From positions 96,001 through 160,000 of the forward strand of contig CAVVYZ010000017.1 of NCBI GenBank assembly GCA_963752595.1: a stretch of 64,000 bases of DNA. The letters run 5' to 3'. Below, piece after piece: positions 16,756 through 32,007 of the stretch. The DNA comes from an uncultured delta proteobacterium (lineage in GTDB: Bacteria > Desulfobacterota > Desulfomonilia > UBA1062). Both the position numbers and the translations under genes were made by a program. The number at the start of each line of letters is the position of its first letter. The first letter of the stretch is position 1. The notes below the pieces were generated by a model. That model did not search any database. It saw only the letters and a list, made by a program, of their open reading frames with translations, and was not told the origin of the DNA.

Positions 16756-17469
16756 ATGAGTGTATTGTATCTGATCCGTCACGGGCAGGCATCCTTCGGG
16801 GCAGACAACTACGACAAACTCTCTCCCATGGGTATACGCCAGGCCCTCATCCTGGGCTCCCACCTGACGAGCATCGGGATAGCGCCGGATGCGGTTTATT
16901 CAGGCGCCATGTCGCGGCAGACGCATACCGCAGAAGAAGTAAGACTCTGCTACCGGGAAAGAGGCAAAAATATCCCCGAGCTCCTCTTGAAAAACGGCCT
17001 CAATGAGTTCGATTCTTCGGCGATCATCATCTCGCAGCTTCCGGATATGCAGAAGGAGGACCCCCTTCTTGCAGAGCATCTCCCCCGGATGTACGAGAGC
17101 AGGGAATCGTTTAAGCGCATCTTTGAAGGAGCGATGCTCAGGTGGGTGTCCGGTGAGTTCGACAGGCCCGGCGTAGAGAGCTGGAAAGATTTTCTGGCCC
17201 GGGTAAGCCTCGCAATCACGCAGATCATGGAAGAGCAGGGCAAGGGCAGGAACATATTCGTCTTCACTTCGGGCGGACCCATAGCGGCTGCGCTCCAGTT
17301 TGTCCTGGGCGTTTCGCCCGAGGCTGCCATCCGGCTCAACTGGCAGATCGTGAACACCTCATACACCAAAATCATGTATAATGCCGGTCGGATCACCATG
17401 GCGTGTTTCAACTGCACCGCACACCTGGAGCTGGAGCAGGAAAGATCCGCGCTTGTCAGCTATCGATAA
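16756..17469 (+). CDS. histidine phosphatase (phosphoglycerate mutase-like) family protein
   Basis: LIRHGQASFG, RQ..TA, LNEFD, FTSGGPI, N...HL. Confidence 0.9.
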   Translation: MSVLYLIRHGQASFGADNYDKLSPMGIRQALILGSHLTSIGIAPDAVYSGAMSRQTHTAEEVRLCYRERGKNIPELLLKNGLNEFDSSAIIISQLPDMQKEDPLLAEHLPRMYESRESFKRIFEGAMLRWVSGEFDRPGVESWKDFLARVSLAITQIMEEQGKGRNIFVFTSGGPIAAALQFVLGVSPEAAIRLNWQIVNTSYTKIMYNAGRITMACFNCTAHLELEQERSALVSYR

Positions 17470-17495
17470 AAGAAAAAAGTAAGAGGAGGATGTGT

Positions 17496-18698
17496 ATGGA
17501 TTTCGAAATCCCGGATAAGATCAAGGTTATCACTGATATGATCAATGAGTTCGTCGACAAGGAGCTCATTCCCCTGGAGCCGGAGTTCGTCACCAAGGAA
17601 TTCAGGAACATGGTCCCGGTGCTGGAAGAGAAGCGGAACATGGTCAGGCAGATGGAGCTGTGGGGGCCGAACCACCCGAAAGAACACGGCGGCATGGGGC
17701 TCGAACCTGGTGGAGCATGGCCTCGTTTCCGAAGCCCTGGGCCGGACTCCCCTCGGGCATTACGTGTTCGGCTGCCAGGCCCCGGACGCCGGCAATATCG
17801 AGATCCTCCACCTTCACGGCACGCCGGAGCAGAAGGAGAAATACCTGAAGCCCCTGGTGGCGGGAAAGATCCGGAGCTGCTTCTCCATGACCGAGGTGGA
17901 CATGCCGGGATCGAACCCGGTCATGATGGAAACCACGGCGGTCAAGGACGGCGACGACTACGTCATCAACGGCCACAAGTGGTACACCACGGCCGCCGAC
18001 GGCTCGAAGTTCGCCATCGTCATGGCGGTGACCAATCCCGAGGCGCCGACGTACCTGCAGGCGAGCATGATCATCGTGCCCTGCGACACGCCCGGCTTCA
18101 ACCTGGTGCGCAACATCCCGGTCATGGGCCAAGCCGGCAGCGACTACGCCAGCCACGGCGAGATACTCTACCAGAACTGCCGCGTGCCGCAGAAGAACCT
18201 CCTGGGCACGGAAGGGCATGGCTTCGTCATCGCCCAGGAGCGGCTCGGACCCGGGCGGATCCACCACTGCATGCGCTGGCTCGGCATCTGCAACCGCTCC
18301 TTCGACCTCATGTGCACGCGGGGCAACGAAGCGGATCATCGCGCCGGGCGGCAAGACCCTGGCCACGCGGCAGATCATCCAGGCCTGGGTGGCCGAATCC
18401 GCGGCCGAGATACAGGCGGCGCGGCTCATGACCCTGTACGCGCCTGGCGGATCGAAAGTCGGGGCCAAGGAGGCCCGGGACGACATCTCCATGATCAAGT
18501 TCGTGGTGGCCAACACCATGCAGCACGTGGTCGACCGGGCCCTGCAGGTCCACGGCGGCCTCGGCATGACCGACGACACGATCATTCGCCTTTTTCTACC
18601 GCCACGAGCGGGCGGCGCGGATTTACGACGGCGCCGACGAGGTGCACAAGATGTCCCTGGCCAAGCGGATCCTGAAGCGGTACGAGAACGGCAAGTGA
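17496..18698 (+). CDS. acyl-CoA dehydrogenase, ACAD10/11-LvaC-like (several frameshifts, probably sequencing errors)
   Basis: Pieces in three frames: MDFEIPDK..., CQAPDAGNIE, SCFSMTE, INGHKW, AQERLGPGRIHHCMR, DRALQVHGG.G, RIYDGADEVH. Confidence 0.85.
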
Positions 18699-18722
18699 GA
18701 AAGGCAAAGAGAGGGATGCCGT

Positions 18723-19403
18723 TTGAATTTCGAGACCTTCAAGGAGCGGTCATGCTCTCCGTGGAGGAGATCTGCCGGGAGCTCCTGGCGAAAACCGCGA
18801 CCGCATCAAGATCAAGAAGGAAGACGTTGCGGTCAAGAACCTGGTGACCATCGTCGAAGCGGCCCTGAGCTCAGCAATGAGAAGGGCTTTGACGCCATGA
18901 GCCTGCGGGACCTGAGCAGCGAATCGGGCCTGAGCATGGGCGCCCTGTATTCCTAATTTCGAGCAAGGAAGACCTGCTGACATGATCCAGCACCAGGGCA
19001 GATCGTTGATATTCAAGGTCCTGGGCGAATATCTGAAGGACATCGAGGACCCGGGGCAAAGCTCGAGCAGGCCATCCAGACCCATCTCTACCTGAGCGAG
19101 CTCATGCAGCCCTGGTTCTATTTTTTCTACATGGAGACCAAGAACCTGCGAAAGAGATACCAGAAGATCGCCATAGAAGCGAGCTGTTCACCGAGCAGAT
19201 CTTCACCGACATCCTCGAGGAAGGCATCACAAGGGCGTATTCCGGAAGGTAAACCCTCAGCTCGGTTAGCCGCCATCAAGGCCATGATCCAGGACTGGTA
19301 TCTGAAGCGGTGGAAGTACGAACGGCGAAAGGTAACAGTGGAGGAATACGCAGGATTTATCATGGACTTTGTTTCATCCTATCTCATGAGAAAGGTACAA
19401 TAG
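18723..19403 (+). CDS. TetR/AcrR family regulator (frameshifted)
   Basis: HTH KGFDAMSLRDLSSESGLSMGALYS; C-terminal KAMIQDWYLKRWKY; multiple indels. Confidence 0.75.
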
Positions 19404-19409
19404 GAAGGG

Positions 19410-20488
19410 ATGTCTTACATGGATCTTCAACGACAAGGCAGCTAGCGTCAGACAGGGCGAAGAGCTGGATACGGGAAAGGTCGGGGAATATCTTAAGAGG
19501 CATACATTCCCGGCCTCGCCGGAGAAATGGCGGTTAAGCAGTTTCCCAGCGGCTACTCCAACCTGACCTACCTCATCAAGGTGGGGAACACGGAGCTGGT
19601 GCTGAGGAGGCCTCCTTTCGGCAGAAAGGCGAAAACCGCCCATGACATGGGCAGGGAGTACCGCATCCTGAAGGCCCTGAACCCGGTGTTCCCTTACTGC
19701 CCGAAGCCGCTGGTCTACACCGAAGACGAAGCCGTCATGGGATGCCCCTTCTACGTCATGGAGCGGATCCAGGGCATCATCCTGAGAAAGAACCTCCCAA
19801 GGGCTTGATCTTCAGCCCTGGACAGATGCGGACGCTCTGCGAGAACCTGCTGGATGTGCAGTACGAGCTTCATTCCATCGATTACAAAGCCATAGGTCTG
19901 GAAGGGTTCGGCAAACCGGAAGGATATGTGAAGAGGCAGGTGGAAGGATGGTCCGAGCGTACCGGGCGGCCCGGACCCCGGATGCGCCGGACTTCGAGGA
20001 TGTCATGCAGTGGCTCCATGACAGGATGCCGCCTGATTCTCCCCGGCCTGCCATCATCCACAACGACTACAAGTTCGACAACGTGGTGCTCGACCCGGAG
20101 AACCCCCTGGAGATCATCGGGGTGCTGGACTGGGAGATGGCGACCATCGGCGATCCGCTCATGGACCTGGGCAGCTCGCTCGGATACTGGGTCCAGAACG
20201 ATGACCCTCAGGATTTCCAGGCAGTCGCGGATGCTCCCCACGAATCTTCCGGGAGCCCTCACCCGGCAGGAGATGGTGAAGCGCTATGCCGCAAAGGCAG
20301 GCATCGCCATCGACAATTTCGATTTCTATCTCTGCTTCGGCCTGTTCCGGCTCGCGGTCATCCTCCAGCAGATCTACTACCGGTTCTATCACGGCCAGAC
20401 CAAGGACGAGCGTTTCAAGATGCTGATCTTCGCCGTGCACATCATTGACGGGATGACGAAAAAGATGATCGAGCAGTCCTTGCTGTAA
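19410..20488 (+). CDS. APH/choline-kinase-like phosphotransferase, LvaA/ACAD10-11 kinase-like (frameshifted)
   Basis: QFPSGYSNLTY, LVLRRPP, AHDMGREY, IIHNDYKFDN, VLDWEMATIGDPLMDLG, FRLAVILQQIY. Confidence 0.85.
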
Positions 20489-20526
20489 GCAATTATTAAT
20501 GAACAGAAAAATTGAGGAGAGACGGT

Positions 20527-21290
20527 ATGGAAAAGGTAGATTTCAGGCTGAACGGTAAGGTCGCGCTGGTGACCGGGGCGAGCAGGGGTATCGGAGAGGC
20601 CATAGCCATTACCTTGGCAGATTACGGGGCGCACTGCATCCTGGTGAGCAGAAAGGAAGATGCCCTGAAGAGGGTTGCGGAAAAGATCGCTTCCCGGGGA
20701 GGCAAGGCCGATGTGATGGCCTGCCACGTGGGGGACCTCAAGCAGATCGAGGCGCTCTTCCAAAGGTCAGGGAGCGGTTCGGAAAGCTTAACATCCTCAT
20801 CAACAACGCGGCCACCAATCCCTATTTCGGCGAGATGCTGGGCGCCGACGAAGGGGTATGGAACAAGACCTTTGACGTGAACCTCAAGGGCCCGTTCTTC
20901 ATGATCCAGAAAGCGGCCAAGCTCATGATGGAAGCAGGCGGCGGCTCCATCGTGAACGTCTCCTCCATCAACGGCATCAAGCCGGCGCCTTTCCAAGGGA
21001 TCTACTCCATCACCAAGGCAGGCCTCATCTCCATGACCATGGCCTTTGCCAAGGAGCTCGCCACAAAGAACATCCGGGTGAATGCACTGCTGCCCGGTCT
21101 GGTGGACACGAATTTTTCCAAGGCCATCATGGAAAACGACATGATCTATGACTACGCGGTCAAGATGATCCCCATGGGCAGGCATGCACAGCCCATGGAG
21201 ATAGCAGGGGCTGTGCTCTACCTGGTTTCGGATGCCGCCCCTTTCACGACCGGAGCATGCATGGTGGTGGACGGCGGTGCCCTGGCATAG
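20527..21290 (+). CDS. SDR family oxidoreductase (frameshift near 20765)
   Basis: VTGASRGIG, NNAATNP, YSITK, NALLPG. Confidence 0.85.
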
Positions 21291-21365
21291 ACTGAACGAC
21301 GTGCCTGCAAGGGCAGGAGGGCCTTCATCAACACTTGTCCGAAAATCTTCTGAAGGAGGTTTTAT

Positions 21366-22283
21366 ATGAACGTATCTGATATCAGGCGTGTCCTCATCCT
21401 GGGAGCCGGCACCATGGGCCAGCAGATCGGATTCATGTGCCATGCACGGATATGATGTGGTGATTATGATATCTCCCAGGAGGCATCCTGGACAAGGCGC
21501 TAAGAGGATGAGAAAGCTCGGCTCCTGGTATCGTCTCCATCGGCCGGATCACCAGGAGCAGCTAGACGAGATACATGAAGAGGATTTCCGCCACCGCAGA
21601 TCCCGCAAGAGGCGGCCCGAGACGTTGATTTCATCAGCGAGTCCGTGCCGGAAGACCCGGAGATGAAGGGCAAGATATTCGCACAGTTCAACGAACTCTG
21701 CCCGGAGCGGACCATCTTCACCACCAATACCTCCATGCTCATCCCCTCCATGTTTGCCGAGGCAGACGGGAAGGCCTGATAAATTCTGCCGCCCTCCACT
21801 TCCACGACCTGCGGATACCAACGTCGTGGATGTCATGCCGCATCCCGGGACGGCACCGGAAGTGGTGGAGCTCGTCCATGATTTTGCCAGGAGCATCGGC
21901 CAGATCGTCATCATGCTCCACAGGGAAAACAACGGCTATGTTTTCAACACCATGCTTTCGAGCCTCTTCTTCTCGGCCCTGACGCTTGCATCGAAGAACG
22001 TAGCATCCATCGAAGACATCGACCGCTCCTGGATGGGGGTCATGCACACGCCCATCGGCCCCTTCGGCATCATGGACCAGGTAGGGCTGTCCACCGTCTG
22101 GACCATCACCGATTACTGGGCAAAAAGGACGCCGATAAGCAGGCCCAGGCGAATGCCGATTTTCTGAAAGGATACGTGGATAAGGGGCTCCTGGGCTTTA
22201 AGACCCGTGAAGGATTCTATACCTATCCGAACCCTGCATATGCCGATCCCGGGTTCCTTACCGGCGAGAGAAAAGCAAAATAA
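21366..22283 (+). CDS. 3-hydroxyacyl-CoA dehydrogenase (frameshifted)
   Basis: ILGAGTMG, ESVPEDP, TTNTS, GYVFN, GPFGIMDQVGL, GFKTREGFYTYP in shifting frames. Confidence 0.8.
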
Positions 22284-22619
22284 GAAAGAAGAGGGCCGGC
22301 TGCAGGCCATCTCATTTTAATACTCGCATTTCCTCATTTCTGGGGTAGCCAATTCACGAATAGCGGCCCATGAGTATAAATATCTCATAAAGGCCGGTCG
22401 TACTGTGAACAATTTATTCATTAATTCCTACTTCAGTATAAAAGGATGCAGAAGAGTTGTAAAATGACTTCCCAGGCGGTTCTAGGGGTGGTAATATATG
22501 GCAAAGATCTGCTAGCATTATACGGGTGACACGGGCAGCTGATAAGAAAATCCACCCGGTAGTGCAGATGGTCTCATGAAAGGCAAAGTACAAATACATG
22601 AACACCAAGGAGATGCACC

Positions 22620-23704
22620 ATGAATACACCTTATGATGACCTAATGAGGTTTTTTGGTACGGCTCTGTACAGTGGAACGCCTGAATGGGCTACACCGAAC
22701 TATGCGATCTATGAAGACGATGCTGTAGTACTGAGGAGATTCGACACGGATAGGACGGGTGATCCGATTATCATTGTTCCTCCTCAGGCAGGGCATCACT
22801 CCAGCATCGCCGATTATTCACCCGATCACAGTCTGGTAAAAACATGCCTGCAGGAGACAACGAAGCCTGTCTATGTGATCGAGTGGAAGGCAAGCACTCT
22901 CAAAAGAAAAAACGAGACCATTGACGATCTTGTGAAACAAACGATGGTCTGTGTGAAAAAGGCAGGCTCAGGTAGGCCGGTTACCCTTGCCGGGCTGTGC
23001 CAGGGAGGATGGCTCGCGACGATTTATGCAGCTTTATTCCCCTATGATGTCAAAGCCCTCATTCTTGCAGCCTCTCCCATAGACTTCACCGCGGGCGGTG
23101 GGAAAATACAGGACATCGTAAGCACCCTTCCTTTCTGGTACTATAAGTACATGGTAGACTGTCACGGCGGAAACATGTCCGGAGATGTCATGCTGATGGG
23201 CTGGAAAATCATGAACTCCTATGACAGATTCATTGGTGATTACCTGAATCTCTGGATCAACGTACAGGATGACAGCTTCCTGGAAAGAACGAGGAGATTC
23301 CGCCGCTGGTATGAATACACCCAGGATTTGTCCGGGAAATGGTACCTTGAGGTAGTGAAGGATCTTTTCATGGAAAACAAGCTGGTTATGGGTACCTTGA
23401 AGGTTCTCGGCGAATGCGTGGACCTCAAGAAGATTACCTGTCCCTTGGCATTACTGGCAGGGGAAAGGGATGATATTACGCTTACTCCGCAGGTTCATAA
23501 CATTGAATACTTTGCATCGACGCCCAAGGAAGATATTTTAAAGTGGTAATTCCCAAGGCCGGGCATATCTCTGTCTTCATGGGCAAGCGGGCTCTCCAGT
23601 ACGAGTGGCCCGAAGCGTTGAGCTTTATCGAGAGCGCAATGTCCCATGAAACGGGCACAGAGCCCTCACCTGATACCAGGGGATACAAGAAAAAAGCAGC
23701 CTGA
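22620..23704 (+). CDS. Cys-nucleophile alpha/beta hydrolase, intracellular PHB depolymerase (PhaZ)-like; frameshift near 23540
   Basis: IIIVPPQAGHHS, GLCQGG, SPIDF, AGERDDIT; the catalytic GH (IPKAGHISVF) continues in another frame to TGA at 23704. Confidence 0.65.
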
Positions 23705-23740: not shown

Positions 23741-24217
23741 TTATTTCCTGCCTTTATCCTTCCCGCTTTGCTCCTGCGAAGCCCCACCGAAGAAGGACCG
23801 GAAAGATGACATATCCGAGAATGTCTTTCGGGCAATATTCGAGTAGTCGAGCTGCACATCAATCCATTTGCTGAATTGCTCGTCCGCTACTTTCTTGAAC
23901 TGGAGGTAGCTGTCGATGATCTGCTGCAGGTATTTCTCAAAAAATTCCTGCAGCACGGTTTCTCCATAGCGGATGATCAGATGGAGAAGTCCTGCCGGAA
24001 GCAGGGCATTCTTATTTCTGGCCTGCTCAAGGATAATCTGGGTAAGAATATATGCGGTCACATCTTCTTTCGTGTTTGCATCGATCACTTCGACCTCGAT
24101 GCCCTGCTTGATCATATCTGCAACCTCGTTTACGGTGATATACTTACTCCTGGCTGTATCGTATAACCGCCTGTTTCCATATTTTTTTAAAAGCAGCTTA
24201 TCCCTGTTTGCCGTCAT
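23741..24217 (-). CDS. phaR: polyhydroxyalkanoate synthesis repressor
   Basis: KKYGNRRLYDT..SKYIT, VIDANTKEDVT..ILTQIILE, LHLIIR. Confidence 0.9.
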   Translation of the reverse strand: MTANRDKLLLKKYGNRRLYDTARSKYITVNEVADMIKQGIEVEVIDANTKEDVTAYILTQIILEQARNKNALLPAGLLHLIIRYGETVLQEFFEKYLQQIIDSYLQFKKVADEQFSKWIDVQLDYSNIARKTFSDMSSFRSFFGGASQEQSGKDKGRK

Positions 24218-24524: not shown

Positions 24525-24570
24525 TGGATTGAGATTAACATTTCAGAAAAATATGAAGGGGGATTTGGAG

Positions 24571-24849
24571 ATGGATATGAGGACAATCATGTTACAGATG
24601 ATTGATTTGCAGAAGGCCTCCTTTGACAACGGATATGAAGCCATTGTCACGGTACAGGACCAGACAGAGAAAGCAGCCAATACCTTAATGGGTCAGGCGG
24701 CATGGCTTCCTTCAGAAAGCAGGGGCGTCCTGAAAGAGTGGTTCGGGATGCTTAAGAAAGGCAGAGAAGATTTCAAAAAGGTCTTTGATGAAGGATACGA
24801 TCATATAGGGGGATATATCAATTCAGCATCCGGCAGCTCTCTGCGCTAA
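24571..24849 (+). CDS. small helical phasin-like protein, paralog 1
   Basis: QMIDLQKASFDN...QDQTEK...KKGREDFKK; aligns without gaps to paralogs 2 and 3; PHA context. Confidence 0.7.
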   Translation: MDMRTIMLQMIDLQKASFDNGYEAIVTVQDQTEKAANTLMGQAAWLPSESRGVLKEWFGMLKKGREDFKKVFDEGYDHIGGYINSASGSSLR

Positions 24850-24889: not shown

Positions 24890-25246
24890 ATGGACCAGAA
24901 AACAATGGTTAAGCAGGCGTTTGATTTTCAGAAGAATACCTTTGACAATTTCTATAGTAGTCTGGTGACTCTCCAGGACCAAGCGGAGAAATCCGTCAGC
25001 TTCTTCTTGGACAGAATGCCGTTGATGCCGGAAGAAAGCAAGAACGTGTTCATGGAGTGGAATAAAATATACAAGAAAGGCAGGGATGATTTCAAAAGGG
25101 CAATGAATGATGGATACGAGAAGATGGAGTCTTATTTCGTAACCACTGCCCAGGCAACTCAGCAGGCTGCGCAGCAGGCTACCAGATCTGCTACTGAGGC
25201 AGGAAAGAAGGCTTCCGAATCCAGCAGGCAGGAAGGTAAATCATAA
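24890..25246 (+). CDS. small helical phasin-like protein, paralog 2 (Q/A/T/S-rich tail)
   Basis: SD AGGAGG; QAFDFQKNTFDN...QDQAEK...KKGRDDFKR. Confidence 0.75.
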   Translation: MDQKTMVKQAFDFQKNTFDNFYSSLVTLQDQAEKSVSFFLDRMPLMPEESKNVFMEWNKIYKKGRDDFKRAMNDGYEKMESYFVTTAQATQQAAQQATRSATEAGKKASESSRQEGKS

Positions 25247-25795: not shown

Positions 25796-26071
25796 ATGGA
25801 CCAGAAAGATTTGGTAAAACAGATGATTGATTTTCAGAAGACGTCGTTTGACAACAGTTTCAATGCCATGAAAATGGTTCAGGAACAGACGGAAAAAATT
25901 ACCGACACCTACGCAGGCCAGGCAAACTGGATCCCCGAGGACGGGAGAAAGCTTATCACCCAATGGATCGGTGCATACAAGAAAGGCCGGGATGACTTCA
26001 AGAAGGTTGTCGATGACAACTTCAAAAAGGTTGATGAGTATTTCAGCACAGGAGATAAGGCAAAGAAATAA
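25796..26071 (+). CDS. small helical phasin-like protein, paralog 3
   Basis: QMIDFQKTSFDN...QEQTEK...KKGRDDFKK. Confidence 0.75.
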   Translation: MDQKDLVKQMIDFQKTSFDNSFNAMKMVQEQTEKITDTYAGQANWIPEDGRKLITQWIGAYKKGRDDFKKVVDDNFKKVDEYFSTGDKAKK

Positions 26072-26104: not shown

Positions 26105-27685
26105 ATGATAGGTAGCTTGAACCATTTCCCCGAACAATATGGGGCTTTTGGGGAAGCTTCTTCGATGCTTGGTGATATCTTTCCAAAGCTATTCAGGGCT
26201 TATGCCGAGAGCGTAAAGGCCTCGCAGGTATATGGAGAAGGCGTGCAGAGGTATTTTCAGGACTTCAATGAAGCCTTTCTGATCGCGGTTGGTGATTTCG
26301 AATCAGTGGAAAGAAAAAATATCCTGAAGGCCCCTCCGGATGAAACCATGAGGGAATACGGCCAACTGCTCCTCATGAATCTCAAAGTTGCAGAAAAGGC
26401 GATGAGGGCCAGTGGTGCAACCGTAATGGAATACCATCTCCCGAAAGCCGGTGATGCTTTTGATGCCTGGTTGAATACCATATTCGGAAGGGAAGGGGAG
26501 GACATTGATGCCTTTTTCTCAGAGCAGGCTCGCCTTCTTGAACGGGTAGTGTACGAGTACCCCAAAGCTATCCGTGCAATCAGGGAAGAATACGGGTTCC
26601 ACTTTGACCGGAGCGGATATGTCAAAGCCGGGGAAACAGATAGATTCGATCTCTATCAGGTTTTGCCCACGCATAAGGACGTATCGGTGCGGAAGAATGG
26701 GAAGCCGGTCATCGTGGTCCCTCCGTTCGTTCTGGGTACGAATATCCTCGCCTTTCTCCCCGGCGATGACAAGAGTTATGTACACGCTTTTGCAAATCAT
26801 GGAATCCCCACGTACATCCGGGTTGCCAAGAATATTTGGACCACGCCTTCCTTTCAGGTGATGACCGGCGAGGATGATGCGAGGGATACAAAGCATTTCT
26901 GTGAAATCGTGAAGAAAAGGCATGGGAAAAATGTCACCCTCAACGGATACTGCCAGGGAGGATTTTCATCGCTGTGCAACATCCTCTCAGGCGAGCTTGA
27001 CGGTCTGGCCGACACCCTGATCACCTGCGTCTCTCCCATGGATGGGACCAGGAGCCCGGGGCTTGCCTCCTTTTTGAAATCATTGCCGCCCAGGTTCAAT
27101 GACCTTGCATACGGGACGAAGACTCTCCCGAACGGCAACAAGGTGGCGGATGGAAAGCTCATGGGATGGGTGTACAAGCTCAGGGCAATTGAAAACGAAT
27201 ACCCTCTGGTGGATTTTTACCGGGATATGGTGATGCTTTCCGCAGACGGAAGCTCAAAAGGTCGATTCAATAAGACAGCCCTGGCCATAAAATACTGGCT
27301 CGCCTATGAGCGGACCGACCTCCCTCTCCCCATCACGAAGATGAGTTTCAATTCTTATAATATCCCCATTACCAGGGACGGTACACTCCCGGTCCGCCTT
27401 TTCGACAGGAAGCTCAATCTCAAGGGCATCCCGGAAAAGGGGGTGAAGTGGCTCATAGCCTATGGGGAAAAGGATGATCTCGTGGAAAAGGAGACTGCTT
27501 TGGCGCCTCAGGATTATATCGAGGTGGAAACGACCGAGTTCCCGAAAGGACATCTCGCCATTGCAACGTCCTGGTCCAATCCCAAGACGGAATACGCTCT
27601 CGACAAGCGGTTCGGAAAGAATAACCAGCGCGGGCCGGTTCTGTTCCAACTGGAAATAGATCAACAGGCCAAAGGAGAAAAATAA
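26105..27685 (+). CDS. divergent PHA synthase-like alpha/beta hydrolase
   Basis: PVIVVPPFV...IL, lipase-box GYCQGG, VSPMD, YGEKDDLV (Asp), KGHLAI (His); long helical N-terminus. Confidence 0.65.
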   Translation: MIGSLNHFPEQYGAFGEASSMLGDIFPKLFRAYAESVKASQVYGEGVQRYFQDFNEAFLIAVGDFESVERKNILKAPPDETMREYGQLLLMNLKVAEKAMRASGATVMEYHLPKAGDAFDAWLNTIFGREGEDIDAFFSEQARLLERVVYEYPKAIRAIREEYGFHFDRSGYVKAGETDRFDLYQVLPTHKDVSVRKNGKPVIVVPPFVLGTNILAFLPGDDKSYVHAFANHGIPTYIRVAKNIWTTPSFQVMTGEDDARDTKHFCEIVKKRHGKNVTLNGYCQGGFSSLCNILSGELDGLADTLITCVSPMDGTRSPGLASFLKSLPPRFNDLAYGTKTLPNGNKVADGKLMGWVYKLRAIENEYPLVDFYRDMVMLSADGSSKGRFNKTALAIKYWLAYERTDLPLPITKMSFNSYNIPITRDGTLPVRLFDRKLNLKGIPEKGVKWLIAYGEKDDLVEKETALAPQDYIEVETTEFPKGHLAIATSWSNPKTEYALDKRFGKNNQRGPVLFQLEIDQQAKGEK

Positions 27686-28273
27686 TGGAAAAAAACCTCT
27701 TTGAACTCTGGGGGAACACCTTCTTGACTGCTGCAAGAGGACAGAAGCAGATGGAGGATACTGCCAAATGGATGAAAGGCGGATTCTGCGAAATCCCGGA
27801 CATGAGCGATATGCTGGGCAGCCTCACCGGAATCAACGCGATAATCTCAAGTTCCACGGAATACCTCAAGATCCTTAACATGGCGAGTGAAAACTTTCAT
27901 GAAATCATTCAAGGAATATTTGTCTATGATGGATCTTGTCCCCAAGAAAGACTACGATTCTCTTCTTGAAGAATTCGAAGGTCTCAAAAAACGCACCGAA
28001 GAAAAGAGCTCAAAGAAAGTCGATAAGCTCTTGAACGAAGAACTCTCTCTCCAGACACAGAGCTTGCGAAGCTTTGAAGAATTAATGAGAAATCAGACCA
28101 GGCAATTTCAGGATTTAATGACCAATTTTACGAAGTTCATCAGTCAGACGAAAACCCGCCCTTCCAAAGAGGGCTCGAGCGGACAGGAAGAAAAGAAGAG
28201 TGCCCCGGCCCGGAAAAGGCCCCCGGCTTCTTCGAGTAAAAGCCCATCAGGCGCTACGGGACCGAAGAAGTGA
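27685..28273 (+). CDS. helical hypothetical protein, PhaE-like (frameshift near 27895)
   Basis: TAATG coupling to the upstream gene; ORFs 27685-27969 and 27887-28273 join with one base removed; YLSMMDLVPKKDYDSL...LKKR coiled coil; K/S/P/A-rich tail. Confidence 0.5.
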
Positions 28274-28325: not shown

Positions 28326-28754
28326 CTATTTCTTTTGTGCCTTGGGAGGGCTTACCAGTGCCTGGCCGTCAAGCACAACCTCACCGTTCTGGTTTGAGCA
28401 TGTAGTATTCAGGATTACCCGATTCTTCTCCGTATTAAGTTCCGATACCTCAACTCTGGCTGTAATGGTATCTCCGACGCGGACCGGAGCAAGGAAATTG
28501 AGTTCCTGTCGTATATAGATTGTCCCGGGCCCCGGAAGTTGCATTCCGATAGCAGCCGATATGAAGCCTGCCTGGAGGATTCCATGAGCGATGCGTGTCT
28601 TGAAAAAGGTGTTCTTGGCATACTCCTCATTGATATGGGCCGGATTGAGGTCGCCGGTGAGGCCGGCAAACAGGTAGATATCGGATTCCGAAATCGTTTT
28701 CGTAAACTCTGCAAAATCACCTGTCCGGATCTCGGTTATGGTTTTTCCGAGCAT
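28326..28754 (-). CDS. phaJ: (R)-specific enoyl-CoA hydratase, MaoC family
   Basis: FAGLTGDLNPAH, RIAHG, LPGPGTIY, FLAPVRVGDT. Confidence 0.88.
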   Translation of the reverse strand: MLGKTITEIRTGDFAEFTKTISESDIYLFAGLTGDLNPAHINEEYAKNTFFKTRIAHGILQAGFISAAIGMQLPGPGTIYIRQELNFLAPVRVGDTITARVEVSELNTEKNRVILNTTCSNQNGEVVLDGQALVSPPKAQKK

Positions 28755-28847: not shown

Positions 28848-29900
28848 TCAAAACCAGGAACGGTGGCTCCACATGTCTTCCTTGAGCTCTTTGAGATCCT
28901 CCTTGAGCATAAGTACACACGATGCATTCTGAATAGCCAAACCTCCCTGATGAGCAATGGCAGTGGCGAGCATTATTTCATCTTCGGAAAACTTTCTGGG
29001 GGAAGCGCTGTAGAGCCTTAAAACTCCGATAACCTCATCCATTGCCTTTATGGGAACACAAAGGATGGATGCGATCCCCTCCTCTTTTTTTTCTTTTTTA
29101 TACTGTACCCCGCCTGCCCGGGATGCATCTTCTATCAGTACAACCTTTCCTTTCAAGGCTTCGGCCATACTTTTCTCTGCAGAAACAGTACCCTTACTGA
29201 GGTATTTCTCACTCAGGCCGAAACTCGCTATCAGCTGCAACGTCTGTTTTTCATTATCGAGGAGTCGTACCGATGCAGCCTTTAATCCGAAGGCATTGGC
29301 CACGTTTTCGGTCAGGATCTCCATGATATTTTTAAGATCGAGATTTGAATTCATGCCTACTGCGAGATCGTGGAACAGCTCGGTATTCTTTCGGATCTGC
29401 TCTATGAGCCTGGAATGCTCGATAGCTATCCCGCCCTGTTCGGCCAGCGCGGTGAGGAAGCTTATTTCATTGTCTGAGAACCTTCTTGGATCAGAGGTGT
29501 ACAGCGAGAGAAGCCCGATTACCTCATTGTTGACCATGACAGGAACGATAAGGATTGATGCAACGCCTTCGGCCTTTTTGATATCATGATGCTGTACTCG
29601 TGCATCGGTGGTAGCATCATGGATAGCGATGTATCCCTTGCGAAGTATTTCTTTTGCTGCCCGCACGGCCTCTTTGGGCTCAATGTGCAGATAATTCTTC
29701 GATAAGCCTTTTTGAGCCAAAGGAAAGAAAAGCGGGCTCTTTGTGTCATTATCCTGCATAAAAAGACAGGCAGCCTTACCATCCATGGTTTCGATGGCGC
29801 TTTGGACGATCAGATCCAGCAATTCTTCCTTTTCAAGGGTGGTCCCGAAGGCCCTGCTCACCTTGCAGATCGTTAAAAAATAGCTTTCTTTTTCCGGCAT
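28848..29900 (-). CDS. tandem GAF-GAF protein without output domain
   Basis: Two internal repeats: GLSKNYL...EGVASILIVP...VIGLLSLY...RRFS and GLSEKYL...EGIASILCVP...VIGVLRLY...RKFS. Confidence 0.85.
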   Translation of the reverse strand: MPEKESYFLTICKVSRAFGTTLEKEELLDLIVQSAIETMDGKAACLFMQDNDTKSPLFFPLAQKGLSKNYLHIEPKEAVRAAKEILRKGYIAIHDATTDARVQHHDIKKAEGVASILIVPVMVNNEVIGLLSLYTSDPRRFSDNEISFLTALAEQGGIAIEHSRLIEQIRKNTELFHDLAVGMNSNLDLKNIMEILTENVANAFGLKAASVRLLDNEKQTLQLIASFGLSEKYLSKGTVSAEKSMAEALKGKVVLIEDASRAGGVQYKKEKKEEGIASILCVPIKAMDEVIGVLRLYSASPRKFSEDEIMLATAIAHQGGLAIQNASCVLMLKEDLKELKEDMWSHRSWF

Positions 29901-31100
29901 GGCTCATCTCCTCAGTTCTTTTGGTGCTCGAAGATCTTTTCTTCAATGAAGAAGTCGCCCGTATCCGGGTCGAGTTCTTTCTGTTTTGGCTGATATGATG
30001 CGCAGGTTCGTACCGGTCTTCGCGTTCTTTAAGCCACTGGATGATTTTGGGAGCAAATTCCTTCTGCGTCTTACTGCTGACATAGATACCGATATGGCCG
30101 GTATCGAGGCATACATTTTCGGTGTCCTTGCTTCCCACCACACTGGTGATCTGTTCAGCAGCTCCGGGGGGCACAAGATGGTCGTACTGGCCATAAATAT
30201 TGAGAAGCGGCATGGTGATATTCTTCAGATCCACCCGCTTGCCGCCGACCACGAGCTTGTTCTGAATGAGCAGATTTCTCTGGTAGCAGTCCTTGACGAA
30301 CTGTCGGAAGGTCTCGCCCGGTACATCAGGGCTGTCGAAAATCCATTTTTCCATGCGGATAAAGTTTTCGACAAATGCCTTGTTGTCCATGTTCTCCATG
30401 AAACCCACGTATTTGTCGATCATCAGTCGTGCCGGATTGAGGAGCAGAAATCCGAAATTCATGAGGTCCCCGGGCATGTTCCCGAAGGTGTCGATCACCT
30501 GGTCCGGATCCATCGCATTTCATCCAGACATGCAGCAGGCCCTGGTCGGTGTCGAAATTGGTCGGGGTAGACCGTCGTGATAAGGTTCTTGATCTTGTTC
30601 GGGTGCAGTGCGGAATAGATGACGGAGAAGGTTCCTCCCATGCAGATGCCCATGAGATTGATCTTGCTCGACCTTTGCCGCTTCCGGATGAAGTTTACGA
30701 TATTGTCCATGTACCCATTGACATGATCGTCGATGGTAAGGAACTTGTCCTTTCGTGTAGGGTATCCCCAGTCAATCATATATAGATTGATGCCGTTTTC
30801 CTGAAAGCTCTTTACCACACTCCTCTCCGGCTGGAGATCGAGCATGGTTTCCCGGTTGATGAGGGCATAGACGACAAGGAGAGGCGTTTTGATGTCATCA
30901 GGGGATGTGCGGGTAGGAGAATAATACTTTAATTTAACACGATCTTCTTCATATATCGTCTCATACGGGGTGGTGGCAATTTCGGTGTTGAGGTTGCTCA
31001 GGAGTATATCAGAGGCCTTCTGAGCCCGCACATGGGCACTCTCTGCCTCCTCGGCAAGGTGCTTTATAATCATATCGACAGGAATTACCGGTTTATCCAT
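29833..31100 (-). CDS. phaC: class III PHA synthase catalytic subunit (two 1-nt insertions, ~30569 and ~30517; true stop may be nearer 29905)
   Basis: PLLVVYALINR..LDLQP, IDWGYP, GICMGG, RMEKWIFDSPD, YDHLVPP, TGHIGIYVS. Confidence 0.9.
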
Positions 31101-31116: not shown

Positions 31117-32007
31117 CTATTCCTTCCCGTTCACCTTTTCAAGCTCCCTGACTTTCTTTTTCAGCAGGTACACCTCTTTGTAGAGGTCGTCCATTTCCTT
31201 GCTCGTTGGAATGGGATAGGTCTGGAGCATGTCCTGTATGATGTCGTTGCGGGCTCCAAGATAGTCCTCCAGCGCAGCCATCGTTTTACTAAAGGTTTTA
31301 TTGTACTCTGATGATTGAAAGAGGGTCATGAAGTGGCCTTCAAGTGTTTTCACCCACATCCGGTAATACTCTCTGGAATCCCCAGGGAGTTTCCCCGCTT
31401 TTGTGAGCACCTCAATTTTTTCGTGCATCATCTTGTTGGTTTTTTCAAACGGCATTTGGACCAGCTGAAGGAATTCGGCAAGGGAAGTTGCAAATAAGTT
31501 ATATTTATCCAGAGCTTGATTGATTTTCTCTTGATGGTATCTGTTCAAGCCAAGCTGGGGTATATTGAAGTAACGTCTGATTTCGCTCTTGTAAATGTTC
31601 GACCAGGTCTGGAGAGTTTCCTGGTCAAGATTGTCGAAGCTGTACGGCTCGGAGCGCGAACCCAGTTTCCCGACTTTCTCGAAGGCTTGCTTCTGAAGGG
31701 TAAGGAATGCATTCACCCCGGATTGGAGAAAGTTCGAGGTTATATCGGGCAGTACTGCAATTCCTCGAAATGCGGCATCCATAGCAGACGGTTCACCCAA
31801 TGCGGTGGATATGGCGGTGAATGATTTGAGGCCGGAGAGGAAAGCATCCTGCAAAGCGTGCCCGTTCTCTTTTTTTGGAGTGGTATTTCCTGTTGAGTTC
31901 TGACTGTTCTGTCCGGAGCCTGACTTTACCCAGAACTGATTTGCAGCCTTCAGCCATTCTGAGATCAATGTCTGCTGGTCAGGAATAGTTTGTTCTTTGT
32001 TGTCCAT
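31117..32007 (-). CDS. phaE: class III PHA synthase subunit PhaE
   Basis: PQLGLNRYHQE, YRMWVKTLE, SSEY, IPTSKEMDDLYKEVYLLKKKVREL; directly upstream of phaC. Confidence 0.88.
   Translation of the reverse strand: MDNKEQTIPDQQTLISEWLKAANQFWVKSGSGQNSQNSTGNTTPKKENGHALQDAFLSGLKSFTAISTALGEPSAMDAAFRGIAVLPDITSNFLQSGVNAFLTLQKQAFEKVGKLGSRSEPYSFDNLDQETLQTWSNIYKSEIRRYFNIPQLGLNRYHQEKINQALDKYNLFATSLAEFLQLVQMPFEKTNKMMHEKIEVLTKAGKLPGDSREYYRMWVKTLEGHFMTLFQSSEYNKTFSKTMAALEDYLGARNDIIQDMLQTYPIPTSKEMDDLYKEVYLLKKKVRELEKVNGKE

Follow-up and report, generated by a model that had tools for sequence, protein, structure and literature searches.

The 64,000-nucleotide stretch of DNA analyzed here, hereafter the window (positions 96,001 to 160,000 of contig CAVVYZ010000017.1 from an uncultured delta proteobacterium), carries phaX, an intact open reading frame (ORF; 26105..27685, forward strand) whose 526-amino-acid (aa) product, given the working name PhaX, is a candidate polyhydroxyalkanoate (PHA) synthase of a family for which no model exists. 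The evidence supports PhaX as a Cys-Asp-His enzyme of the PhaC superfamily of α/β-hydrolases that lies outside the sampled synthase classes I–IV and the depolymerase PhaZ. On balance, we regard it as somewhat probable that PhaX is a PHA synthase belonging to a hitherto undescribed class.

Sequence motifs and predicted structure of PhaX

The synthase motifs listed in the preliminary description of this DNA occur in PhaX in the order given there, namely PVIVVPPF (residues 201–208), GYCQGG with the predicted nucleophile Cys283 (codon 26951..26953), GEKDDLV with the predicted catalytic Asp457 (27473..27475), and KGH with the predicted catalytic His483 (27551..27553, all on the forward strand). IDWGYP and RMEKW are missing, as also described; the Trp of RMEKW is nonetheless retained as W398. 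All three catalytic residues are invariant in 55/55 close homologues and in 45/45 aligned rows of the family, distant members included, and the phaX of the closest relative, locus L001, is 88% identical. The AlphaFold model of PhaX (mean predicted local distance difference test score, pLDDT, 89) contains long helices at residues 8–72, 78–127, and 134–161 followed by an α/β-hydrolase core, and this predicted fold, together with the Cys-Asp-His triad in order, places PhaX in the PhaC/PhaZ1 superfamily. The helical N-terminal domain noted earlier (three long predicted helices, residues 8–161; 26105..26587, forward strand) is reproduced in the model; its supposed uniqueness is not upheld, as the domain occurs family-wide.

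The best fold matches of PhaX are class I/II enzymes, including C. necator PhaC1. The top Foldseek match is the solved class I PhaC of Aeromonas caviae (9knl; E 7.7e-14, 14% identity), followed by 6k3c, 5xav, 5hz2, and 5t6o, all of them solved PHA synthases, while other hydrolases appear at E 2e-7 or worse. PhaX resembles classes I and II in being a single chain of about 60 kDa with a helical N-terminal part ahead of the catalytic domain, and shares with them the register of the PP-aromatic-aliphatic..IL loop. However, it matches none of their PhaC models, the N-terminal profiles do not correspond, and the whole-chain root-mean-square deviation against a full-length structure is 18–22 Å. Identity to solved PhaC enzymes is 12–19%, and sequence searches of solved structures returned nothing for PhaX and no PhaE chain.

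No Pfam model matches PhaX at E 0.1, PF07167, PF06850, and PF11339 included. Its sole NCBIfam match is class III PhaC (TIGR01836) at 24.7 bits against a cut-off of 365.3, which does not make it a class III member; it is likewise no member of class I or II, with no match to TIGR01838, TIGR01839, or PF07167 at E 0.1, nor of class IV, falling as it does outside the III/IV branch of the tree described below. Membership of PhaZ1/PhaZa is contradicted by the lack of any match to TIGR01849 or PF06850 and by the absence of the CQP box and of the His of the [AS]GH loop, and that of DUF3141 (PF11339, cut-off 29.7 bits) by the lack of a match in PhaX and by matches below cut-off in just 2 of 39 relatives. 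Judged by sequence, the PhaX family is a real, widespread, and unmodelled branch of the PhaC superfamily. A protein search with PhaX gave 2089 matches among 7994 scored candidates, a genome scan gave 559 matching stretches, and among all representatives clustered at 50%, a profile search found 340 family matches at E 0.001, which marks the family as discrete; a tblastn search of a plasmid collection at E 1 gave no match. Named homologues are mostly called "metal transporter" or hypothetical and come from Desulfobacterota, including the cultured hosts Desulfonema magnum (two copies) and Desulfonema ishimotonii, and one member is labelled class III PhaC by one source. In the Atlas, PhaX groups with unnamed "metal transporter" clusters (0.99) and then with PF06850 and class III clusters (0.94 each). 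The transporter label is rejected on account of the hydrolase fold and the catalytic triad.

No paper on the PhaX family was found in a literature search whose reach did not extend to the D. multivorans PhaEC study, which may cover this neighborhood, and the word "polyhydroxy" is absent from the main texts of PMC5109826 and PMC11887813, the supplements of which could list these genes.

Members of 641–666 aa were considered as fusions of PhaX with the protein encoded directly downstream, the partner. This was rejected, given that the partner profile matched 0/270 proteins, longer and shorter forms not being searched separately; the extensions are low-complexity tails. Lys/Ala/Pro-rich low-complexity tails are found either on PhaX (P0121, P0122, P0125, and P0126) or on the partner (L001, L006, and L026), and they resemble the DNA-binding tails borne by PhaF and PhaM. 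In P0135 (938 aa), TIR and NB-ARC domains precede a PhaX catalytic domain whose triad looks intact; this is a single sequence that could be a chimeric assembly.

Placement within the PhaC superfamily

The residue comparison is based on the catalytic domains of 98/122 rows (45 PhaX, 27 class I–IV, and 23 PhaZ-side rows among them), 24 rows having been excluded before alignment (17 near-duplicate or atypical, and 7 with a nucleophile missed by the pattern). After exclusion of 14 further rows, a quick tree of 84 catalytic domains was built. PhaX forms a single clade in this tree (32 rows; Shimodaira–Hasegawa-like approximate likelihood-ratio support, SH-aLRT, 100), whose long stem joins between the synthase side (92) and a side comprising PhaZ1, DUF3141, and two PhaZ-side groups designated ZD and ZL (95). 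PhaX nests within none of the sampled classes I–IV, PhaZ1, or DUF3141, in line with the atypical enzyme of the preliminary description. By its sequence it lies outside all of these, relative to a reference set without the class V PhaC that is named in the accessible part of PMC11767486. In approximately unbiased (AU) tests on 34 rows, joining PhaX to classes I/II gave p 0.21, to III/IV 0.10, to ZL 0.051, and to PhaZ1 with ZD 0.039.

Profile–profile comparison ranks classes III/IV highest for PhaX (E 8.5e-24, residues 167–494), followed by ZL (1.6e-17), classes I/II (3.5e-16), DUF3141 (5e-8), the PhaZ-like ZD (4e-7), and PhaZ1-type enzymes (0.022). Two class-I-labelled rows that fall outside class I and two PhaX rows were omitted from this comparison, and an earlier one with class III, which was weak (11%) on a shallow alignment, was replaced by that on the deeper alignment. 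The N-terminal domain matched none of seven profiles (best probability 16%), and its profile corresponds neither to the class I/II N-terminus (probability 0.9%) nor to the PhaE, phasin-like, or partner families.

Eight residues are given as universal in PhaC in the part of PMC11767486 that was available (S260, C319, G322, D351, W425, D480, G507, and H508), and all of them are present in PhaX as S224, C283, G286, D313, W398, D457, G482, and H483, the positions having been placed via 13 class-I-labelled and 12 class III rows rather than C. necator itself. These positions are kept in 37–45 of the 45 PhaX-family rows. The His of the [AS]GH loop, present in 23/23 PhaZ-side rows, is Leu in 44/45 PhaX rows. 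N248 and D254 of the INK..ILD loop and H481 after the catalytic Asp are also tabulated as conserved in synthases (PMC10215190, as far as accessible), and the corresponding positions hold Asn in 25/27, Asp in 27/27, and His in 24/27 class I–IV rows.

The closest profile to PhaX is thus that of the class III PhaC/PhaE (TIGR01836/TIGR01834; Allochromatium vinosum type) and class IV PhaC/PhaR (Priestia megaterium) enzymes. The Cys, Asp, His, Trp, Ser, and Gly positions of these enzymes are in register with PhaX, the CQGG box is common to both, and PhaX too has a small helical neighbor with a PhaE/PhaR-like zipper. However, class III enzymes are of about 40 kDa, whereas PhaX has 526 aa, a 160-residue helical N-terminus, and a separate clade; it lacks IDWG and the Asn/Asp loop residues, its catalytic Asp is followed by Asp instead of His, and its neighbor is 3′ rather than 5′ and is not obligatory.

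Occurrence of PhaX with and without other synthases

PhaX was sought in three genome surveys. Among 201 genomes of the phylum, it is present in 11, while class III exceeds its cut-off in 18 and PhaZ1 (TIGR01849) in 2. Among 61 genomes of the order of genome G142, 22 carry PhaX and 22 a TIGR01836 match, 13 having both, which leaves nine PhaX genomes in three genera without a TIGR01836 match; in genus g111, PhaX is found in 4/9 genomes and class III in 0/9. At E 0.001, the class I, PhaE, local class III, and DUF3141 models likewise found nothing in six of the nine (G142, G206, G211, G224, G240, and G250; 92–99% complete, in 20–490 contigs), and PF06850 is absent from 5/5 PhaX-only genomes examined, whereas the same queries gave matches in other genomes. 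Genome G159 was left out of the PhaX-only set as its contig ends inside the GAF gene. In 8/9 PhaX-only genomes, thiolase, phaR, phasin-like, phaX, partner, and 3-oxoacyl reductase genes form one cluster; in the ninth, the phaX contig measures 4 kb. At the level of whole genomes, these patterns hint that PhaX may be the only polymerase in some of them.

In this order, the genomes with phasin-like genes are precisely the 22 that carry PhaX, and PhaR-like genes are found in those 22 plus one, but the nine class-III-only genomes have neither, and phaE-phaC-GAF forms a separate module. Physical linkage accounts for part of this co-occurrence. The class-III-only genomes are G005, G218, G228, G233, G237, G245, G247, G252, and G253, whose granule coat is not accounted for by these genes. 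The ratio of nonsynonymous to synonymous substitution rates of phaX is 0.06–0.19 where class III is missing (21 pairs, 7 genomes), indicating purifying selection, and 0.08–0.16 where class III is present (6 pairs); G244 gave no match to the nucleophile and Asp patterns in this comparison. In three of the nine PhaX-only assemblies (G217, G219, and G240), phaX is frameshifted, and G322 holds a PhaX fragment only.

Some genomes carry two phaX copies (L011; L015 with L033; G262, G267, G282, and G315), and L011 includes a second, inverted phaR-phasin-phaX-partner block. At L101 (G143) and L175 (G213), a partnerless phaX adjoins two class I phaC genes and an acetoacetyl-CoA-reductase-like gene (CoA, coenzyme A).

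The partner gene downstream of phaX

The partner gene (27685..28273, forward strand) encodes a helical, coiled-coil protein with a Lys/Ala/Pro/Ser-rich tail, which has 195 aa in the intact L001 locus. As previously described, the phaX stop codon TAA (27683–27685) overlaps the partner ATG as TAATG, and an indel lies near 27895, where an extra base causes the gene to appear as two ORFs (94 and 128 aa). DNA alignment of the region with L001 shows one single-base gap, and a short-read contig (from the one of four runs that covers the site, at depth 2.9) is identical over 27830–28006 save for one base fewer at 27895; the split is therefore attributed to an assembly error, and a true pseudogene is rejected.

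The locus counts given here and below refer to the best 80 of the 559 matching stretches, a sample in which close relatives are overrepresented and many loci are truncated. The partner stands directly 3′ of phaX in 69/80 and at another place of the locus in 4, while 5 loci lack it and in 2 it is cut off; its start overlaps phaX in 17 and follows within a gap of 0–30 base pairs (bp) in 37 of the 68 placed. The preliminary description had likened it to PhaE: the quoted peptide is present in the 27887–28273 frame, but the likeness does not extend beyond a short zipper motif. With HHalign, the partner aligns to the PhaE C-terminus over 63 columns (probability 69%, E 4.5e-5) and to Priestia PhaR over 57 (45%, E 2.3e-4), and shows no likeness to the phasin-like family profile (1.7%). 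PF09712 is matched by 2/56 members (best E 7.9e-5), which falls short of PhaE membership, and TIGR02132 (PhaR) is not among the 25 families listed for these 56. TIGR01837 is matched by 13 of the 56 and TIGR01834 by 6, all far below cut-off, and the unrelated coiled-coil models TraP and HlyD are matched, also below cut-off, by 13 and 12; matches to NheA/NheC and similar proteins, likewise far below cut-off, are discarded as coiled-coil noise. With the PhaF/PhaI-type granule proteins (TIGR01837, PF05597), the partner shares a helical body, a short zipper, and, in many members, a Lys/Ala/Pro-rich tail; TIGR01837 is its most frequent weak PHA-related match. However, these matches are level with those to unrelated coiled coils, and the partner does not qualify as a member. 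The PhaM architecture is presumably a further parallel.

In the phylum survey, the partner is present in 8/11 PhaX genomes and in 7 PhaX-negative ones, 6/7 of which have the homologue 5′ of an ordinary phaE-phaC; this distribution makes it a PHA-cluster protein in its own right. At L107–L112, a partner homologue lies directly 5′ of phaE-phaC, so that some class III operons include a third, unnamed gene.

The preliminary proposal of a new two-component class has thus survived in part, namely for an enzyme outside the sampled classes, its PHA cluster, and a tightly linked gene, and the partner as an obligatory PhaE-like subunit is not established. That the partner is such a PhaE/PhaR-type subunit, forming a two-component synthase in C-then-E order, is compatible with any role of PhaX, and we consider it doubtful. 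Its position and the HHalign matches fit, as do its size, which resembles that of class IV PhaR (199 aa), a 131-aa gene 5′ of a PhaC that scores alike on the PhaR, PhaE, and partner models, and a PhaR-named Bacillota cluster that is the first named Atlas neighbor (0.83, a lead only). However, the match is confined to the zipper, on which phasin and unrelated coiled-coil models score equally, PhaX has a helical N-terminus of its own, partner homologues precede phaE-phaC in PhaX-negative genomes, and PhaX occurs without a partner in 3/11 genomes and in 12/12 of the divergent-clade loci among those listed, which together leave the two-component claim unproven. The partner is poorly modeled in the Atlas (predicted template-modeling score, pTM, 0.22; all template-modeling scores, TM, <0.35), and a complex prediction for the intact L001 pair, based on paired alignments of 75 rows, gave a score of 0.01 and a mark of 0.32 and is counted neither for nor against binding. 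PhaF and PhaM exemplify a granule-anchor architecture, and the partner is possibly either a small PhaE/PhaR-type activator or an anchor of this kind.

Proposed role of PhaX and alternative explanations

Polymer synthesis and thiolysis share acyl-enzyme chemistry, so that motifs alone cannot tell them apart, and the eight PhaC residues are not diagnostic of a synthase since ZL keeps all eight as well. The balance tips toward synthesis because the PhaX-only clusters read like phaA-phaR-phaP-phaC-phaB. Several points weigh against this reading. The fold ranking is biased, as class I was the sole PhaC-superfamily type found in the structure library, and the tree is unrooted, with PhaX attached midway between the synthase and PhaZ sides on its long stem; the four AU tests are uncorrected and were picked once the tree was known. 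The Asn, Asp, and His of synthases are replaced in PhaX by L210, A216, and D458, and an Asp after the catalytic Asp occurs in 24/45 PhaX rows, likewise in 5/7 PhaZ1 and 7/8 ZL rows. The PhaX-only genomes are interrelated drafts from one order, 3/9 of which were checked with a single model, and their linked reductase scores 127–136 bits against an acetoacetyl-CoA reductase cut-off of 302. Furthermore, phaC and phaE are present in 28/31 full-length loci and, among 81 genomes of the order of G134, 26/27 PhaX genomes also have class III PhaC, which would make PhaX redundant as a synthase there. TIGR01849 PhaZ exceeds its cut-off in 0/11 PhaX genomes of the phylum survey, and a degrading enzyme is therefore often unaccounted for.

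Some of these observations lend themselves to an intracellular mobilizing, Cys-dependent depolymerase, which would convert granule PHA and CoA to 3-hydroxyacyl-CoA and feed the linked reductase and thiolase in reverse; C. necator PhaZ1 reportedly cleaves PHA thiolytically with CoA. The near-obligate company of class III PhaC in the order of G134 and the missing PhaZ1 would suit such a role, as would the synthase genes beside phaX in a divergent metagenome clade, where it adjoins class III in 2/12 listed loci and class-I-like genes in 2 near-identical loci. PhaX shares with PhaZ1/PhaZa, ZD, ZL, and DUF3141 the Cys-Asp-His triad, the Gln after Cys, a location in PHA clusters, and an acidic residue after the catalytic Asp, which is Asp in PhaX as in PhaZ1 and ZL; the loss of the synthase loop residues, the second rank of ZL among the profiles, and the level Atlas values of PF06850 and class III clusters point in the same direction. 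However, PhaX has neither the loop His of PhaZ-type enzymes nor the CQP box of PhaZ1, lies outside the PhaZ-side branch (SH-aLRT 95), matches the PhaZ1 profile negligibly (E 0.022), and is marginally rejected from a grouping with PhaZ1 and ZD. Moreover, phaX is constrained and intact where no synthase is detectable, and another PhaZ-side enzyme is encoded in 27/80 loci. In our judgment the depolymerase, offered in the preliminary description as a mobilizing enzyme, is rather unlikely but the chief rival to a synthase. Still more improbable is a granule-associated acyltransferase that makes or degrades no bulk polymer, such as a primer or oligomer synthase, a chain-transfer enzyme, or another storage-ester maker. 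The roughly equal distance of PhaX from synthases and PhaZ on a long stem, its low identity to solved PhaC enzymes, and its family-specific invariant stretches and N-terminal domain would agree with this, as would a solitary phaX apart from PHA genes, near genes resembling those of a 2-oxoacid dehydrogenase complex, at L102 (G075) and L103 (G167); nevertheless, the Cys nucleophile and the eight PhaC residues are retained, the co-occurrence with phasin-like and PhaR-like genes is exact, and thiolase and reductase genes adjoin phaX in PhaX-only genomes.

For PhaX as a synthase, a mechanism can be proposed by analogy with PhaC chemistry. His483 would activate Cys283, which would attack (R)-3-hydroxyacyl-CoA in covalent catalysis as in PhaC, and Asp457 would activate the incoming 3-hydroxyl group for chain extension. 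The (R)-3-hydroxyacyl-CoA would be supplied by the linked thiolase and reductase, or by the MaoC hydratase. Dimerization or granule anchoring, for which class I enzymes use their N-terminal domain, would fall to the three N-terminal helices, and PhaR would control the co-expressed small phasin-like proteins that form the coat of the granule. For the partner, a likely role is that of a granule-associated helper that carries a zipper of the PhaE/PhaR/phasin type and that not every lineage would need as a subunit. Beside PhaEC, PhaX would provide this genome with a second synthase, which perhaps differs in monomer range or in timing.

Genomic neighborhood of phaX

Upstream of phaX, the window encodes the PhaZ-side Cys-Asp-His enzyme ZL (22620..23701, forward strand; AGHH loop), which is frameshifted near 23537 in this assembly, and a PhaR-like PHA regulator (23741..24217, reverse strand; PF07879 90 bits against a cut-off of 25, TIGR01848 103 against 109). 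Three forward-strand phasin-like paralogues follow (24529..24849, 24890..25246, and 25796..26071), the third encoding a small helical protein of 91 aa; they reach no family cut-off, and their label and putative role derive from size and context. The gap of 33 bp between the third paralogue and phaX is as described earlier, and co-transcription of the two is plausible from spacing alone; a promoter scan found 6 sites against 6.0 in shuffled sequences, which equals chance, and a terminator scan was likewise near chance.

Downstream of the partner and on the reverse strand lie a MaoC-family dehydratase gene with a presumed PhaJ-like role (28326..28754), a double-GAF gene (28848..29900), a canonical class III phaC (29833..31100), split by one-base insertions at 30515 and 30568 relative to L001, and a canonical class III phaE (31117..32007; PF09712 68 bits against a cut-off of 25.7). 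Dense single-base indels relative to L001 at 17358–23600 and 30515–30568 break several window genes, a pattern typical of unpolished long-read assembly, for which reason apparent pseudogenes in the window are to be distrusted. The gene order of the window is the usual one among the 80 loci, which contain phasin-like genes in 77, phaR-like genes in 66, class III phaC in 60, phaE in 58, the double-GAF gene in 56, and maoC in 42. The double-GAF gene accompanies phaE-phaC, also where these form a separate module in the order of G142, and its product is a possible regulator of the class III synthase. Desulfococcus multivorans is said to store PHA with a class III PhaEC.

The separate full-length PhaZ-side enzymes of the 27 loci comprise 16 ZL, 8 ZD, and 3 further DUF3141 proteins. 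ZL (L001:6369-7451) has a PPQAGHH loop, an LCQGG box, and the eight PhaC residues, yet falls on the PhaZ/DUF3141 side of the tree; it is a candidate for the depolymerase of this cluster. ZD is a PhaZ1-like family of 470–520 aa with a CQP box and about 100 bits to TIGR01849, below cut-off, and fills the same slot 5′ of phaR in other Desulfobacterota (L017:6335-7744, L065:2877-4349, and 6 more loci). The genome of the window also encodes, at another site (G000:C1:227423-228379; L117:7289-8395), a class-III-like protein in which the nucleophile Cys is replaced by Ser (GHSLGG), and L148 holds a similar Ser variant.

Relevance of PhaX to PHA biology

A broader proposal, which we put forward tentatively and consider unlikely to hold in full, is that PhaX represents a new synthase class forming a third deep PhaC/PhaZ branch across anaerobic Desulfobacterota and that, where no other PhaC- or PhaZ-type enzyme occurs, it both builds polyester and returns it to 3-hydroxyacyl-CoA, conserving the thioester energy, with the partner as a minimal PhaE/PhaR-like activator. 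The synthase determines which monomers a PHA bioplastic can contain and what properties its chains have, and producers are screened for with class I–IV models, which miss the PhaX family entirely. If PhaX polymerizes, it would be a structurally distinct catalyst, as its distance from the solved PhaC enzymes suggests, and sulfate reducers and syntrophs that are scored as non-producers could store PHA. If it is instead a thiolytic mobilizer, it would fill the depolymerase gap in anaerobic PHA producers.

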